From Candidatus Latescibacterota bacterium (GTDB taxonomy: Bacteria > Latescibacterota > UBA2968): a stretch of 64,000 bases of DNA. A program made the translations under genes and the position numbers. The stretch is from contig OZ242320.1 in NCBI GenBank assembly GCA_965208125.1, positions 1,216,001 through 1,280,000 on the forward strand. Reading direction: 5' to 3'. Every line of letters starts with the position of its first letter. Position 1 is the first letter of the stretch. Shown here piece after piece: positions 1-5,055 of this stretch. The notes below the pieces were generated by a model. That model saw only the letters and a list, made by a program, of their open reading frames with translations. It ran no database searches and had not been told where the DNA came from.

Positions 1-26
1 TAAAGTCACACATCGCGTATAATTTT

Positions 27-407
27 CTAACAAATATACTCTCTCAACCATTCGACAAGTTGCTCGCGGGAAACTTCTCCTGATGCGACGCCCAAAATAA
101 TTTGCTCTTGAATATCTTCTTCAATAGTATCAATTCTATATCCATTGGAACGCAAGAATACTTGCATTGCGGCATGCCCCACCCGTTTATTCCCATCGAC
201 AAAGGGATGATTCTGAATCAAAGAAAAGCACAAGGCTGCCGCCTTTTCTATAACAGTAGGATAGGGATCCAGTCCCTCAAACGCCATATGGGGTTGTGCA
301 ATGGCCGATTCCAGTCCACCAAGATCGCGCATCCCCGCAGATCCGCCACTTGTTTGAATAATATGATTGTGAAGTGCTAATATTTGATCTAAATTGATAT
401 AATTCAT
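27..407 (-). CDS. doc: Death-on-curing (Doc/Fic family) toxin
   Basis: Doc-type motif HPFVDGNKR and typical N-terminus (GG..G.RDLGGLESAIAQP). ATG at 407 overlaps the upstream TGA (TGATG). Confidence 0.92.
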   Translation of the reverse strand: MNYINLDQILALHNHIIQTSGGSAGMRDLGGLESAIAQPHMAFEGLDPYPTVIEKAAALCFSLIQNHPFVDGNKRVGHAAMQVFLRSNGYRIDTIEEDIQEQIILGVASGEVSREQLVEWLREYIC

Positions 408-1534
408 CAACTTAGCCTTTTGTATAGTTCTCTATTTTTCTTGAGTACTTGTTCACAGATATCCTTAAATCTCTGTTTCTCAAAAGATTTAATAGGCTCA
501 TCAAAACTCTGTCCTCGAAATACACCGTTTTGAAAAAAATTGATCGTGTCATCTTTTATTTGACAATACGATCCACGGCCACCTCTTCTAAATCCCAAAT
601 GATGGCCTATAACAATGCGTATGATCTCGGGAACTACGGCAGCAACTATGTTGAAGGTGTACTTTTTGGACTTCTCACCATCAAGTCCTTTTAGCTCTGG
701 TATTCGACCCGTGTGTGTCAGGAAATTACGCACCCGGTCAACATATTGAACGCGAGTCTTTTGATCAGGGGTTGGCGACGGATCTATAATTTCCAGTGAT
801 TGCAGAAGCGAAAATAATTTATCTAACAAAGATGGGCCACGATCAATCTGACCATGTAGCAAATTTCTATACCGTTCCACCTGATCTGGTTGAAGTTCTG
901 TTGTTTTTTCGAGAATATTACTGATCTCATTTTTAAGTTTCTTACGAATAGGCTTGCTGACTCTTTCATAGGTCATCTCATGCTGGTCGAGAACAATGTT
1001 GAGTGCCGTGCAGTAAGAAGCCGCACGTAATTGCAGGATGTTGGTATTCATTGCCTGATTGTACAATAGCAAAGCAAAGTGCAAATTTTTCGATACTAAG
1101 GATTCCCTATTTTGCCAGGCAAGTGCTGCCGCGCGCAAAGTCTCAATTTGAGCCACAGCATAGTCACCATATCCATCTGGGCGAACCCTCTCACAGTATT
1201 CTGCTGTTGCTACATTTCTACCCGTCAGAAACGTGAGCAAATTGCATAAATCCCACAGTCCTCCATCGTCGGCTACCTTGTCGAGAAGAATACTTTTTTC
1301 TCCTGCCCCTTTCCAGGACACAGTTGCTGTGGCTTGCCAGGTACCTTCGCGCGATGGTAAGAGTTGTTCCCCTGTTTCATTTAGGGTCCACATTGGAGGT
1401 TGAGGCAGTTGAGAAACTCTGGCATTGTAATCATCTGTGAGACGCACCTTAAGACAGCCAATACTACTCTCTGACCATGAGGGGCCGGGACGTGAATCGC
1501 CCATATAGAGATTGAAGATGTCAACTGTTTTCAT
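407..1534 (-). CDS. Putative HEPN-domain protein (ApeA-like) with C-terminal Phd-like antitoxin helix
   Basis: 375-aa ORF with AGGAG RBS. RxxxxH motif RNFLTH in the helical C-terminal half. Ends FKDICEQVLKKNRELYKRLS. Confidence 0.6.
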   Translation of the reverse strand: MKTVDIFNLYMGDSRPGPSWSESSIGCLKVRLTDDYNARVSQLPQPPMWTLNETGEQLLPSREGTWQATATVSWKGAGEKSILLDKVADDGGLWDLCNLLTFLTGRNVATAEYCERVRPDGYGDYAVAQIETLRAAALAWQNRESLVSKNLHFALLLYNQAMNTNILQLRAASYCTALNIVLDQHEMTYERVSKPIRKKLKNEISNILEKTTELQPDQVERYRNLLHGQIDRGPSLLDKLFSLLQSLEIIDPSPTPDQKTRVQYVDRVRNFLTHTGRIPELKGLDGEKSKKYTFNIVAAVVPEIIRIVIGHHLGFRRGGRGSYCQIKDDTINFFQNGVFRGQSFDEPIKSFEKQRFKDICEQVLKKNRELYKRLS

Positions 1535-1667
1535 TTGTTTTTTCTCCTATTAGATCGTGTCGAATACTTACTTACGCTTCTGCGTCAAGGGCACAACCGC
1601 CAACTTATCGGCATTCTGTGAACAGCTCCTGCGTCGGGATGCTACATATTACCTGTTAGCGATTGCG

Positions 1668-2216
1668 CTAACGAAACTTAGGTCCTTTCGCATAGGCGAA
1701 GGCTTCTTTTTGACTCATGCCCAATGTTATCGCGGTAGCATACGTGTTGGCTTCTTTTTCACTCATGCCCAGTGTGATCGCGGTATCATAGGCTTGGGCA
1801 AAGGTTCGGGCTGCTTCTTCGGTCTCACCTCTACTTATCCCTAAGGCATACTTGTGGGCTGCGGCTTCACTCATGCCCAGTGTGATCGCGGTATCATAGG
1901 CTTGGGCCGAGGTTCGGGCTGCTTCTTCGGTCTCCACACCTCCACTTATCCTTGAGGCATACAGGCTGGCTGCAGCTTCACTCATGCCCAGTGTGATCGC
2001 GGTATTATAGTATTGGGCAAAGGTTCGGGCTGCTTCTTCGGTCGAAAAAAATTGCCAGCGGGCTACATCTTCACTCACGCCCTGTGCTATTGCTACGGCA
2101 TAGGCTCTGGCGTGTTCATAGCTCCAGCCCGCTTCCCTCGCGGAGCGATAATTAACGGAACGAGTGATTTCGTCAACGATTATTCCTTTTTCTAGCAAAA
2201 AGTCTTTGACAGACAT
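1668..2216 (-). CDS. Hypothetical alpha-helical tandem-repeat protein
   Basis: AAGGAG RBS. About 36-aa repeat EEAARTFAQAYDTAITLGMSEAAA..YA..IS.G three times plus partial units. Confidence 0.75.
   Translation of the reverse strand: MSVKDFLLEKGIIVDEITRSVNYRSAREAGWSYEHARAYAVAIAQGVSEDVARWQFFSTEEAARTFAQYYNTAITLGMSEAAASLYASRISGGVETEEAARTSAQAYDTAITLGMSEAAAHKYALGISRGETEEAARTFAQAYDTAITLGMSEKEANTYATAITLGMSQKEAFAYAKGPKFR
1700..2045. repeat. Intragenic tandem repeats (108-111 bp period)
   Basis: cactcatgcccagtgtgatcgcggtat at ~1760, ~1868 and ~1979; degenerate copy at ~1712. Confidence 0.9.
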
Positions 2217-2237
2217 AACAATCTCCTTAATGATATG

Positions 2238-2300
2238 GAGTGCCGTGCAGTACGAAGTGACACAAAATTACAGGATGATGGTATTCATTGCTTTATTGTA
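2238..2300. repeat. Degenerate 63-bp copy of an internal segment (1001-1063) of the HEPN gene
   Basis: Ungapped alignment with about 10 mismatches in 63 nt, same orientation. Confidence 0.85.
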
Positions 2301-2323
2301 TAAATGATGTTACACAGCTTCAA
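2295..2323 (-). promoter_or_regulatory. Putative sigma70 promoter of the repeat-protein gene
   Basis: TTGAAG-N17-TACAAT on the minus strand. Confidence 0.5.
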
Positions 2324-2367
2324 AAGAGGGTATAATAACAGCTAATGAAGATGTAAATGCCGATCTT

Positions 2368-2452
2368 TCTGGATTGCGGCTTACACCATAGCCTGCCCCT
2401 ATATGCTTTAAGCAGGGGCCGCAATGACGGGCGAGGCCTGCCTCGCCCCTAC
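2368..2452. repeat. REP-like palindrome cluster
   Basis: ctggattgcggc...gccgcaatgac plus gggcgaggcctgcctcgcccctac; related elements at 40.3, 51.8, 52.7 and 55.4 kb. Confidence 0.75.
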
Positions 2453-2483
2453 AATGGATAACTGACCGCCTGCCTGCTGATTG

Positions 2484-3281
2484 CTACAAATTATCAACCG
2501 CATAAACAGCTTTCTCTATCTGTTCCTCTCCGACGGTTTTGACCTTCGCATCAGAACCGAGCAACAGGGCAATATCGCAAATATTGTTTATATCTCGTGG
2601 AATACCATTGGACGCTTGATAGAGCGCGTCGAGCGCGTCCTCGTCGAACAAGGACCGATCGGCTCCCGCTTTTTCCAGACGTGTTTGCACATAAGATAGG
2701 GTTTCTTCGCGCTTGAGCGGTGCGAGGTGATATTGCCGCGAGACCTGTTGTCCCAATGCCTCAACGCCCGCGACCCGTTCCACGAGGTCTGCCTGTCCAA
2801 CGAGGAGAAGGGTGAGAAAAAAACGCCCGTTGCGTTGAAAGCTGAACAGAGATTGCAACTCTTCAAATGTATTGTCGTCTTCTATTGCATGGGCATCATC
2901 GACAATGACGACCGTATATTTGCCTGCATTGGCACTCTTGACAGCCTGAACCTCAAGTGCGCGTTGCAATTTTCCGTTCGATTGGTCCTCAACGCCCAAT
3001 TGCCCGAGCATATCCCGTAGAAAGTCTTCCGGCGAAAGACCAGGTCCATTCATAAATGCGATCTTATACCTGTCAGATGACAGTTCCTGGACGAGCATGC
3101 GACTCACAGTGGTTTTGCCACAGCCCGTGTCGCCCGTGAGCACGGCAGCCCCCATGCGAGTATTGATCGCGTAAAACATTTGCAACAGTGCTCTCTGGTG
3201 ATCTGCTGAAGAATAAAAAAAACGCGGATCCGGCACACTTTCAAACGGCAATTCTGTCAGATTCCAATATTCCTGGTACAC
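2484..3281 (-). CDS. ExeA/GspA-family AAA ATPase
   Basis: N-terminal Y..YW.L...PF..VPDP.FFY, Walker A GDTGCGKT, Walker B VVIVDD, C-terminal SNGIPRDIN. Confidence 0.9.
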   Translation of the reverse strand: MYQEYWNLTELPFESVPDPRFFYSSADHQRALLQMFYAINTRMGAAVLTGDTGCGKTTVSRMLVQELSSDRYKIAFMNGPGLSPEDFLRDMLGQLGVEDQSNGKLQRALEVQAVKSANAGKYTVVIVDDAHAIEDDNTFEELQSLFSFQRNGRFFLTLLLVGQADLVERVAGVEALGQQVSRQYHLAPLKREETLSYVQTRLEKAGADRSLFDEDALDALYQASNGIPRDINNICDIALLLGSDAKVKTVGEEQIEKAVYAVDNL

Positions 3282-3558
3282 GGTTTTAATCCTTTATTTT
3301 AAGTCCGACTATGGACTTAAAAGCCCAATCGGAGTCGTGGTTTAACGCTGCTTATTGCACCTGTTTTATCGCAATCCAATATAGTTACCTCAAACGGTCT
3401 GTGTCAAGTAATCGGCAAAGCGATTTGAGGACTTTCCGATATTTTATACAACACGGAGACATTGGCACAAAATACTTTGACGGAACGTATCCAAACCCTA
3501 TATTTTGCTGCACTGCGCTGGTGATACATCTGTTTTGACTTTCATTTTGGAGATCTGT

Positions 3559-5055
3559 ATGGCCTGGTGGCAATCCGTTTTGCTGGCCACTTACAGCCTG
3601 GTGTTTGCATTGCTGATGCTCGTAAGCCTGCATCGACACTTGATGGTACACCTCTATTACAAGCACCGTCGCAAACAACACATTCCCCGCGGCACCTTTG
3701 ATGAATTACCCGTTGTGACAGTGCAATTGCCCGTATTCAATGAACGCTATGTGGTCGAACGGCTGATTCGCGCGGTCGCCAAGATGGATTATCCAACCGA
3801 CCGCCTCGAAATTCAGGTTTTAGACGACTCGACTGATGAAACAACCGCCATTGCCAGGCGGTGCGTAGATGAACTCCGGCGTTCGGGATTGGATATCGCG
3901 CTGATACACCGCAACACGCGCACCGGGTATAAAGCCGGTGCGCTCGCAGAGGGATTGCGGGTTGCACGCGGTGAATTAATCGCAATTTTTGACGCCGATT
4001 TTCTACCGCCACCGGATTTCTTGAACAAAACCATCCCGCATTTCGTCGAACCGCAGGTCGGCATGGTTCAGACGCGCTGGGGACATTTGAATCGGGATTA
4101 TTCCATTTTAACACGCGTACAGGCCATTTATCTCGACGGTCATTTTGTCATGGAACACGGTGCGCGTAGCCGCTCGGGTTTGTTCTTCAATTTTAACGGC
4201 ACAGCGGGCGTCTGGCGCCGAGCTTGTATCGAAGAAGCCGGCGGTTGGCAGCACGACACCTTGACCGAAGACCTCGATTTGAGCTATCGCGCGCAATTGG
4301 CGGGCTGGAGATTTGTCTATCTCGCGGATACCGTAACACCGGCGGAAATCCCCGTGGAAGTAAATGCCTGGAAATCACAGCAATTTCGGTGGGCAAAAGG
4401 CTCAGTTCAAACCGCAAAAAAAACACTAAAGACCCTGTTGAAAAGCCATCTTTCCTGGCGCGTGAAGGGCGAAGCCGCTTTTCATCTGGTAACCAATTTC
4501 GCATATTGTTTGATGGCAATGATCGCCATTCTCATTTTTCCCGCAATTGTCCTGCGGGAAGACCTGGGATGGCTCAGAGTGGTAATAATCGATTTTCCTC
4601 TATTTTTAGGCGCGACGGGCGTAATCTCGAGATACTACATCCACTCGCAACGAGAAATTTATTCGGATTGGAAATCGCGCATCCTGTATTTGCCATTCGT
4701 ACTCGCCCTGGGCATGGGGATTTCATTGAACAACGCGCGCGGAGTGATTCAGGCTCTGCGAGGACACGAGACCGCATTTAACCGCACCCCTAAATATCGC
4801 GTTATCGGCAGGAATGGAAATTGGTATCGCAAAAAGTACGCCCTGAAAAAAAATATAACTGCATTTTTGGAAATTGGACTCGGTCTTTATCTGCTGGTCG
4901 CCATGGCGTATTCAATTGCGAAAGGGCTGTATTTCCCCGTGCCATTCCTGATCTTGTTTGCCTCCGGCTTTTTTTTCGTAGGGGGCATGTCTTTGTTCCA
5001 GGGTATCTGGGCGAAAATGCATGCGCAATCAATTGAAGTCGCGGAGGCAAACTAA
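3559..5055 (+). CDS. Membrane glycosyltransferase family 2 (cellulose synthase-like, CslA-type)
   Basis: VTVQLPVFNE, DDSTD, KAG, FDADF, TEDLD and QQFRW motifs; several TM helices; GGAG RBS before ATG 3559. Confidence 0.92.
   Translation: MAWWQSVLLATYSLVFALLMLVSLHRHLMVHLYYKHRRKQHIPRGTFDELPVVTVQLPVFNERYVVERLIRAVAKMDYPTDRLEIQVLDDSTDETTAIARRCVDELRRSGLDIALIHRNTRTGYKAGALAEGLRVARGELIAIFDADFLPPPDFLNKTIPHFVEPQVGMVQTRWGHLNRDYSILTRVQAIYLDGHFVMEHGARSRSGLFFNFNGTAGVWRRACIEEAGGWQHDTLTEDLDLSYRAQLAGWRFVYLADTVTPAEIPVEVNAWKSQQFRWAKGSVQTAKKTLKTLLKSHLSWRVKGEAAFHLVTNFAYCLMAMIAILIFPAIVLREDLGWLRVVIIDFPLFLGATGVISRYYIHSQREIYSDWKSRILYLPFVLALGMGISLNNARGVIQALRGHETAFNRTPKYRVIGRNGNWYRKKYALKKNITAFLEIGLGLYLLVAMAYSIAKGLYFPVPFLILFASGFFFVGGMSLFQGIWAKMHAQSIEVAEAN

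Follow-up and report, generated by a model that had tools for sequence, protein, structure and literature searches.

A HEPN-like protein with a Doc-antitoxin tail encoded in front of doc in Latescibacterota, a likely large antitoxin of type II

Type II antitoxins are generally thought of as small, labile and DNA-binding proteins with a short neutralising peptide. The Phd-Doc pair of phage P1, reportedly treated in Garcia-Pino 2008 and Castro-Roa 2013, is one of the systems with which the locus described below can be compared. AbrB, Xre, YhfG and PHD antitoxins are all given as partners of Doc by Makarova et al. (2009, PMC2701414). Ernits et al. (2023, PMC10440598) showed with PanA-Phd-C:Doc of Corynebacterium doosanense that such a peptide is portable: Doc is neutralised by a Phd-like element at the C-terminus of the Panacea domain, SUMO-Phd-C being sufficient. 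They put forward a 'linear neutralisation' model and suggested that the accessory domain acts as a sensor. Here, a computational analysis was made of a locus at the beginning of a 64,000-nucleotide (nt) stretch of a Candidatus Latescibacterota genome (the window, G000:C1:1216001-1280000; G000 is a single-contig genome of 5.75 Mb), in which a doc gene is preceded by the gene of a HEPN-like protein of 375 amino acids (aa) ending in a Doc-antitoxin tail. The pair is likely a toxin-antitoxin module of type II, with a large HEPN-family protein standing in place of the small DNA-binding antitoxin, and, judging from sequence and models, the 375-aa protein is very probably the antitoxin of Doc by linear neutralisation. 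Computation shows the homology of the tail, a single fusion inside a clade of Docs linked to ribbon-helix-helix (RHH) antitoxins, and the maintenance of both genes under purifying selection.

Like PanA-Phd-C, the 375-aa protein has a Phd-C-type helix appended to a globular domain that does not bind DNA, the accessory domain of PanA being dispensable for neutralisation (PMC10440598). Unlike the small Panacea domain, the accessory part is here a 345-residue two-domain HEPN-family protein with its RNase-type motif intact; moreover, its body descends from a family of solitary genes in defence contexts, and its tail, which came from an RHH antitoxin, is predicted to be one helix of about 21 residues. 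Since a Phd-C tail on a non-DNA-binding domain has been published for PanA (PMC10440598), the architecture is to be regarded as a variant and not as an undescribed kind. A preliminary description of the locus had held the architecture to be undescribed, which is correct insofar as no HEPN-family protein with a Doc-neutralising tail was found in the main text of open PMC papers and bioRxiv, and incorrect as to the principle, published for PanA (PMC10440598). With P1 Phd-Doc, the locus shares an antitoxin gene upstream of doc and overlapping it, a helix of the F...N(K/R)EL..R pattern and a Fic-fold Doc with a K-containing motif; it differs in its Doc, which has 29.8% identity with P1 Doc (97% of the length aligned), and in the body of the antitoxin, which is neither Phd/YefM nor DNA-binding. 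As no operator-binding domain is present, conditional cooperativity on DNA cannot work alike at this locus. At this locus, a large enzyme-like protein whose family occurs in defence contexts has naturally acquired a neutralising peptide, and the fusion has been retained for long across two Latescibacterota families.

The downstream open reading frame (ORF) encodes what is, by its family matches, clearly a Doc-family toxin of 126 aa with a Fic fold (minus strand, 27..407 including the stop codon at 27-29), with a PF02661 match of 1.1e-23 (84.3 bits, cut-off 24) and a TIGR01550 (DOC_P1) match of 6.4e-20 (71.5 bits, cut-off 38.65). Fic motifs of the Doc type have the form HxFx(D/E)(A/G)NKR, and this motif is intact in the window Doc as HPFVDGNKR (residues 67-75), N66, H67, P68, F69, G72, N73, K74 and R75 being invariant in an alignment of 26 Docs. 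By analogy with P1 Doc, its target would be EF-Tu, whose phosphorylation would block translation.

The gene of the 375-aa protein lies directly upstream on the same strand (407..1534), with its ATG at 1532-1534 and an AGGAG about 10 nt 5' of this ATG. Its TGA (407-409) overlaps the ATG of doc (405-407) to give TGATG (405..409), which indicates, as read from the sequence, translational coupling of doc to the 375-aa gene. Among the ORFs of the window, no small one is found between the two genes or just upstream of them; 5' of the 375-aa gene follow 133 nt and then the unrelated gene of a 182-aa repeat protein. A promoter and terminator scan of the locus gave counts equal to the shuffled expectation. 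The preliminary description, in which doc lacks a small upstream phd and is coupled through TGATG to a 375-aa protein with an RNFLTH motif, agrees with these coordinates and features. From its N-terminus, the protein is made up of an alpha/beta domain (residues 1-142, 1109..1534; pLDDT, the predicted local distance difference test, of 93.5 for the domain model), a HEPN-like helical domain delimited by structural matches and a weak PF18739 match (residues 143-345, 500..1108), a predicted flexible linker between body and tail (residues 346-354, 473..499) and the putative Doc-neutralising tail, a Phd-C-type helix (residues 355-375, RFKDICEQVLKKNRELYKRLS, 410..472) assigned from homology, complex model and substitution rates. 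The RNFLTH sequence, an Rx4H HEPN signature recognised by the invariance of R269, N270 and H274, occupies residues 269-274 (713..730). In the linker pLDDT is below 50, and insertions and deletions of 0 to about 22 residues are found there among homologues, both in the alignment of 26 close homologues (A1) and in that of the tails (A3, see below).

The C-terminus of the 375-aa protein reads ...FKDICEQVLKKNRELYKRLS. In a protein collection clustered at 90%, 91 homologues were found, and at 50% clustering 133 representatives at E<=1e-3, 80 of them at <=1e-10. Within A1, the homologues of at least 64% identity (21/26 rows) end in RF..IC..VL.KN.ELY.RLS, and the five more distant rows (P0076 and P0080, the nearest at 57% and 45% identity, and P0087, P0089 and P0090) have another ending and no tail; two of the 133 representatives align up to residue 375, both belonging to the window's own 50% cluster. 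The tail, being confined to close homologues, is therefore a late acquisition of one clade.

A search for Doc in 168 Latescibacterota genomes gave a match at E<=1e-10 in 74 of them, and the upstream ORF was read at the 30 best and at 20 more distant loci. At 11 of the 30 best loci a HEPN-like gene ending in the tail motif lies upstream, at 18 an ORF of 63-118 aa ending in ..DFEHAAEHVLKKNRELYRRLS or a close variant and overlapping doc by one base, and at the last one (L050) a degraded frame. The one-base overlap with doc is found in 29/30 of these loci with either type of upstream gene, and it is kept, with co-oriented upstream gene, in all 11 HEPN-linked loci. These 18 small ORFs and 11 HEPN-like genes bear out the ending F......VL..N.ELY.RL that the preliminary description had given for doc-linked antitoxins. 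At 35-44% identity, the more distant Docs pair with MazE/AbrB-type or other RHH antitoxins, whose tails are related but different.

The last 21 residues align without a gap between HEPN-tail proteins and 13 small RHH antitoxins (A3, 24 sequences), with conserved columns F31, V38, L39, N42, E44, L45, Y46, R48, L49 and S50, the tail residues of the interface in the complex model described below. Like the RHH-antitoxin/Doc pairs of the phylum (L026-L049), the window pair has the TGATG coupling, a Doc that is 55-70% identical and a tail identical to that of the small antitoxins of its congeners at 14/21 residues; unlike them, it has the 40-residue RHH DNA-binding part replaced by a 345-residue HEPN-like protein and a linker. 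RHH_1 (PF01402) is matched above the cut-off in L048 (1.3e-06), the other small antitoxins match RHH or DUF6290 weakly, and neither these donor-type antitoxins nor the 375-aa protein match Phd/YefM (PF02604). On these matches, the tail donors are RHH antitoxins and not of the Phd/YefM fold, and the tail is Phd-like only in its C-terminal element. The C-terminus of P1 Phd in record M95666.1 is ..EFASLFDTLDSTNKELVNR, in accordance with the ending ..FASLFDTLDSTNKELVNR quoted earlier, and aligns with the window tail on the F...N(K/R)EL..R pattern. Consequently, the 'Phd-type neutralising tail' first proposed holds as regards homology to Doc-antitoxin tails and the modelled place in the Doc groove, and fails as regards its source, an RHH and not a Phd/YefM antitoxin.

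A profile of 25 tail columns was found at 47 places in 44/168 genomes of the phylum, with per-genome E values down to 1e-15. Twelve of these places are the fusions, with frames of 379-470 aa, one is the remnant of genome G087 and 34 lie in frames of 23-131 aa; no large carrier besides the HEPN fusions was found by this profile in the 168 genomes. When short proteins with the last 40 residues in common were sought by a word-based method, which missed the small antitoxins, three candidates came out, all apparently fragments of the same family. Homology of the tail to the C-terminus of small RHH Doc antitoxins is thus shown by computation, at the level of sequence.

The predicted complex of tail and Doc is consistent with this origin. 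With the Doc alignment and an alignment of the 50 C-terminal residues as the two chains, three runs gave interface (ipSAE) scores of 0.83, 0.85 and 0.85, the best of three controls reaching 0.00; that mark is reached by 58/80 solved complexes and 2/110 mismatched pairs. At least 98% of the contacts are common to the runs, with partner pLDDT of at least 64. The interface comprises residues 355-356, 359-364 and 366-375 of the tail and residues 8-22, 72-87 (including G72, K74 and R75 of the Fic motif) and 97-105 of Doc. In the model, the tail, by which the preliminary description had expected Doc to be held, is predicted to dock in the groove of Doc at the Fic motif, a result that supports binding and does not demonstrate it.

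The distribution of the genes was then compared with that of the tail. Tail-bearing genes have doc directly downstream in 10/11 loci of the genome contigs and in 1/1 metagenome locus, and tail-less relatives in 0/3 and 0/22 loci respectively, some of these loci ending early downstream. In the phylum, the HEPN-like gene occurs in 13/168 genomes, nine of genus g1 (G000 among them) and four of g25, which belongs to a different family. Twelve of these genes are intact and tail-bearing, 11 with doc, as the neighbourhood search for HEPN-tail/doc pairs found, and one (G085) without it; in the remaining genome, G087, both genes are decayed. The fusion is retained at 60-90% protein identity in 12 species-level genomes of the two families, and within g1 the locus is syntenic (7/11 loci of the genome contigs). 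Maximum-likelihood analysis of 50 Docs unites the 11 HEPN-linked ones with support of 100/99 and places them within a larger clade of 30 rows (100/98) that also holds the Docs linked to RHH tails, which points to one fusion event from an RHH-Doc module. All three parts of the protein are estimated to be under purifying selection, the ratio of nonsynonymous to synonymous substitution (dN/dS, NG86, 10 pairs) being 0.24-0.48 in the N-domain, 0.16-0.43 in the HEPN domain and 0-0.43 in the tail.

These results bear directly on the view that the fusion is a fortuitous read-through or an annotation artefact devoid of function, to which next to no probability is given. All tail-bearing genes belong to one lineage and a close homologue, P0076 (57% identical), is tail-less, as such a view would have it, but the fusion is found in 12 species-level genomes of two families and in at least 21/26 sampled protein clusters, with a tail under purifying selection and a conserved doc overlap. 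A one-off chance fusion never found next to doc, considered at the outset as what would speak against the proposal, is contradicted by the single origin, the 12 genomes and the selection on the tail.

As a separate observation, each genome of genus g1 carries either HEPN-tail/doc (9/21) or RHH-tail/doc (7/21), never both. The tails being near-identical, cross-neutralisation or redundancy might explain this exclusivity, and shared ancestry would do so equally well.

In the mechanism proposed for the type II module, the tail would occupy the groove of Doc beside the Fic motif and hold the kinase inactive by linear neutralisation, as in Phd and PanA-Phd-C, and TGATG would tie the translation of doc to that of the HEPN-tail gene. 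With the tail in the groove and the genes coupled, Doc would be silent only while the full-length HEPN-tail protein is made, and truncation, loss or destruction of this protein would free Doc and lead to a translation block. The HEPN body would have an accessory or sensor role, comparable to that of Panacea or of DNA-binding domains in other antitoxins, and the module would either lock the HEPN gene into the genome or add Doc as a second effector. These two elaborations are compatible with each other and with the antitoxin role.

As for the body of the protein, the family was aligned over 58 diverse full-length members down to about 20% identity (A4). G105, R269, N270 and H274 are the only invariant columns in this alignment, the last three being invariant in A1 as well, and a WDLCxLLTFLTGRRV motif in the N-domain (residues 94-108) is nearly invariant. 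The 375-aa protein itself has no match above threshold in Pfam, NCBIfam or PADLOC. Its best HEPN-related Pfam row is PF18739 (HEPN_Apea) at E 0.02, with 15.8 bits against a cut-off of 24.4, and in PADLOC nothing reaches E<=0.001, PDC-S58 (E 0.002) being the only row. NCBIfam rows for a Shiga toxin and a sigma factor (10.7 of 720 and 15 of 162 bits) were rejected as chance. When the 58 members were scanned at E<=0.01, PF18739 was matched in 3/58 (best 5.9e-06), PF18735 (RiboL-PSP) in 2/58 and PF18731 (Swt1) in 1/58, and PADLOC gave Csx1/Csm6 in 1/58 and Cas13-ApeA in 1/58, so that the sporadic matches are all to HEPN models. In the ESM Atlas the nearest clusters are unnamed and HEPN_Apea or ApeA_NTD1 clusters appear only at 0.88, which serves as a lead only.

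An AlphaFold2 model of the whole protein, built from 26 sequences, has a pLDDT of 86.8 and a predicted template modelling score of 0.81. In an exhaustive VIA-align search of 48,161 chains, HEPN proteins rank first, all on model residues of about 142-316, at Z values of 5.5-7.4, which are 'middling' on the scale of the tool and below 8. Csm6 (8jbc) comes at the top with Z 7.4 (root-mean-square deviation 5.3, 126 residues aligned), followed by an AMPylated HEPN toxin (8xdj, Z 6.8, deviation 3.9, 111/130 aligned), HEPN-MNT (7ae2, 6.7), 4nqf (6.6), 2hsb (6.6), 5yep (6.5) and the Sacsin HEPN domain (3o10, 5.7). The invariant motif and this structural ranking together make a HEPN fold of residues 143-316 probable, with good confidence as far as models go; because the Z values are middling, it is rated as probable and not as proven. 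The body would probably still be an active RNase, held in check under normal conditions, and its family is one of solitary genes of defence type. The claim of a 'HEPN nuclease' made at first is accordingly retained for a HEPN-like protein with invariant RNxxxH and HEPN proteins as its best structural matches, and is tempered as to membership, which is modest at these Z values and with Pfam matches under the cut-off. For the N-domain alone, the best VIA-align match has Z 3.7 (HMA/ferredoxin-like domains), none reaching 5, and Foldseek against PDB gives nothing at E<=0.001, so its fold is not recognised. An unnamed HEPN-like family of about 130 clusters at 50% identity is hereby defined, with a new N-terminal domain and without a Pfam or PADLOC model.

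Several points weigh against the antitoxin interpretation as a whole or against its HEPN part. The middling Z values leave the HEPN assignment insecure, the window protein stays below every Pfam HEPN cut-off, Foldseek with the whole model finds nothing in PDB at E<=0.001, and the 58-member profile against PDB sequences gives matches at chance level only (E 0.3-2.5); aligned by hhalign with the neighbouring Swt1-like HEPN protein, only a 19-residue motif is covered, at a probability of 0.7%. No DNA-binding domain (Phd/YefM, RHH, AbrB or Xre) is matched by Pfam in the 375-aa protein at E<=1, so that the usual autoregulation of type II modules would be without counterpart here. Since Phd-Doc complexes are solved, the pass in docking may reflect likeness to Phd-Doc, and since the author's own alignments were used, the calibration of the score is only rough. 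All tail-bearing genes form one clade, hence phylogeny confounds the association of tail and doc, which amounts to one evolutionary event. The intact tail without doc in G085 implies either that the tail is not quickly lost or that the protein has a doc-independent role. Finally, the neutralisation of Doc, its toxicity and an RNase activity of the body are inferences.

The modest HEPN membership also leaves some room for a body that, in this clade, does not act as a nuclease and only supports the tail, as a scaffold or by dimerisation or stability, which is nevertheless judged quite improbable. In favour of such a scaffold, SUMO-Phd-C neutralises Doc (PMC10440598), so that any stable domain could serve, HEPN domains dimerise (bioRxiv 10.64898/2026.01.26.701840), as the DNA-binding domains of antitoxins do, and HEPN membership is weakly supported. 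However, R269, N270, H274 and G105 are invariant in 21/21 tail-bearing rows of A1 as in 58/58 rows of A4, dN/dS is 0.16-0.48 over the N-terminal and HEPN parts, and G085 retains the intact gene without doc.

Two known HEPN systems can be compared with the body. In HepT the motif is Rx4HxY, with an AMPylated Tyr at position +2 after the His. The matches to structures of HepT-MntA, a HEPN-MNT toxin-antitoxin system of type VII (7ae2, 8xdj and 5yep, Z 6.5-6.8 on residues 142-316), and the Rx4H motif are points in common. Unlike HepT-MntA, the motif is RNxxxH(T/A/S/G/R)G without Tyr, and no MNT gene is adjacent, the neighbours being doc, the repeat protein, an AAA_22 gene and the Swt1-like HEPN gene; furthermore, the HEPN protein of HepT-MntA is itself the neutralised toxin, whereas the one described here carries the neutralising element for another toxin. 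Doc might in principle covalently modify the HEPN protein in the way MntA AMPylates HepT, Doc being then the regulator and the HEPN RNase the toxin, and in this sense Fic-fold enzymes do modify hydroxyl side chains and an AMPylated HEPN toxin and HEPN-MNT are among the best structural matches. This reversal of roles, raised in the preliminary description, found no support and is considered highly improbable: the residue following H274 is T, A, S, G or R depending on the member, with no Tyr there or at +2, tail-less members of the family live without any Doc, the window Doc belongs to a clade of ordinary Docs controlled by RHH antitoxins, and the modelled contact is an antitoxin-type helix in the Doc groove and not a substrate loop.

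The second system is ApeA, a defence protein with HEPN anticodon nuclease function, with an N-terminal domain (1-198), a Mid domain (199-309) and a split HEPN domain (335-583), mostly helical and assembled into doughnut-shaped decamers or dodecamers (bioRxiv 10.64898/2026.01.26.701840). The present family resembles it as a single-gene HEPN with extra N-terminal domains and defence contexts, and through the few PF18739 (3/58) and Cas13-ApeA (1/58) matches mentioned above. Identity with ApeA as it is described there was rejected: the protein has 375 aa against about 580, no Mid domain, a 142-residue alpha/beta N-domain, no match to PF18862 (ApeA_NTD1) and a PF18739 match below the cut-off.

The genomic company of the tail-less relatives was also considered. 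No conserved partner gene was found in the 21 loci inspected; they are solitary genes beside a C5 methylase and a GHKL ATPase, AbiEii, Mrr_cat or Abi_C, as well as a serine recombinase, a TrwC relaxase with ArdC, an MmeI methyltransferase or a KAP NTPase, which by these annotations are neighbours typical of defence islands or mobile elements. The module of G000 is flanked by an AAA_22 gene on one side and by genes of PhyH-type dioxygenases on the other, and in 5/5 examined congeners without the module there AAA_22 abuts the PhyH gene (97% identical), so that about 3.9 kb of G000 make up an accessory islet. The islet (window 1-3281 and L138, G000:C1:1204001-1216400) contains the repeat protein, the HEPN-tail gene, doc and a 349-aa Swt1-like HEPN protein, hence two different HEPN proteins. 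The gene of the latter (PF18731 at 6.9e-11; G000:C1:1214704-1215753, minus strand, L001:52-1101), just left of the window, is 273 nt downstream of doc on the same strand, and only its C-terminal half is kept at the same place in G084. HEPN and Doc also co-occur in restriction-modification loci, where RloC-like ABC-HEPN proteins and DOC toxins are encoded and a multi-level defence against RNA and protein targets is proposed (Anantharaman et al. 2013, PMC3710099). In the accessible part of that source they are separate genes, with no physical link or tail reported (PMC3710099).

These contexts recall the guard or dual-toxin module of the preliminary description, here taken as a guard or two-effector abortive infection system, in which the HEPN protein would be both phage sensor and RNase, and, once triggered, remodelled or destroyed, would free Doc from the tail, RNA cleavage and EF-Tu phosphorylation together stopping translation. 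Besides the solitary relatives in defence-island or mobile contexts and the islet shared with a Swt1-like HEPN gene, the intact catalytic motif and the purifying selection are in keeping with it. So are ApeA, a distant HEPN relative that is a ligand-activated abortive tRNase (bioRxiv 10.64898/2026.01.26.701840), and the sensory role proposed for the accessory domains of Phd-C antitoxins by Ernits et al. (PMC10440598). The predicted disorder of the linker argues against a tight allosteric coupling, and the trigger as well as a state-dependent binding of the tail are purely hypothetical; the arrangement, which elaborates the antitoxin role and is not an alternative to it, is regarded as possible though rather unlikely.

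The pattern of losses bears on another elaboration, an addiction lock in which Doc and the tail would be a selfish retention device protecting a costly or dangerous defence gene from mutational loss. Since the neutralising helix is encoded by the final 21 codons of the HEPN gene, a nonsense mutation, frameshift or deletion anywhere in that gene would remove the antitoxin and kill the cell. In G085 (L100) the HEPN-tail gene is intact at the syntenic site and doc is replaced by other DNA; at locus L013, apparently of the same genome, the place of doc is held by a 502-aa ORF that we take for a DNA methylase from its N-terminal sequence. In G087 (L105) only remnants are left, namely residues 219-375 of the HEPN protein, with a TAG, and residues 107-124 of Doc. 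With 11 genomes having both genes, one the HEPN-tail gene only, one both decayed and none a HEPN-linked Doc whose upstream gene is missing or truncated (0/11 loci of that clade), the losses fit a doc lost first and a HEPN gene decaying afterwards; the tail at the extreme C-terminus, the coupled translation of doc and the synteny within g1 (7/11 loci), consistent with long vertical retention, point the same way. On the other hand, the numbers are small and the genomes related (n=13), such a loss pattern is expected of any toxin-antitoxin pair, the replacement and not retention of the RHH domain is left unexplained, and missense inactivation of the RNase would not be policed. A lock of this kind is held to be doubtful.

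About as tentative is the combination of both, an interlocked two-toxin immune module in which a solitary HEPN sensor-RNase of a new family would have become the Doc antitoxin, the integrity or the resting state of one effector licensing the silence of the other, so that phage attack on the HEPN protein or its activation would unleash Doc and truncation of the HEPN protein would be lethal. If true, it would be a natural case of a defence gene made 'un-losable' by an antitoxin peptide at its C-terminus. Together with the likely antitoxin role, the locus offers a testable system for whether a toxin-neutralising tail can couple two effectors and police the integrity of a defence gene, and for what an accessory domain senses.

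Contigs from RNA libraries (Logan, four metatranscriptomic runs labelled as sponge, coral or coded organisms) contain relatives 85-97% similar to the locus, and in 3/4 runs from two studies they bridge the HEPN/doc junction; in run X21 no bridging contig was found. Such contigs are compatible with expression and do not prove transcription or a single transcript. Their sequence departs from that of the window right before the HEPN gene begins (loose ends at 1519 and 1534), at the place of the additional repeat-protein gene of G000. This gene (1668-2216, minus strand, read as an ORF) encodes 182 aa with repeats of about 36 aa (..EEAARTFAQAYDTAITLGMSE..), corresponding to DNA repeats of 108-111 nt; it belongs to no Pfam family and, among the related loci searched, is present at this site only in G000.

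Further upstream lies the gene of the 265-aa AAA_22 ATPase (2484-3281, minus strand; PF13401 at 6.4e-19), in genus-wide synteny with a GT2 glycosyltransferase gene (3505-5055). Its N-terminus is presumably ExeA/GspA-like. It was rejected as a part of the system, as it adjoins the module only in genus g1 and abuts PhyH in the 5/5 examined congeners without it. The wider flanks are metabolic, with sulfatases, GH43, GT2 and TonB/ExbB. Between the repeat-protein and AAA_22 genes, a 71-nt stretch with an in-frame stop (2233..2303, minus strand, direct repeat D4) is a direct copy, 82% identical, of 996-1066, about codons 157-180 of the HEPN-like gene, and seems to be a remnant either of a second HEPN-like copy or of a rearrangement by which the repeat-protein gene came in.

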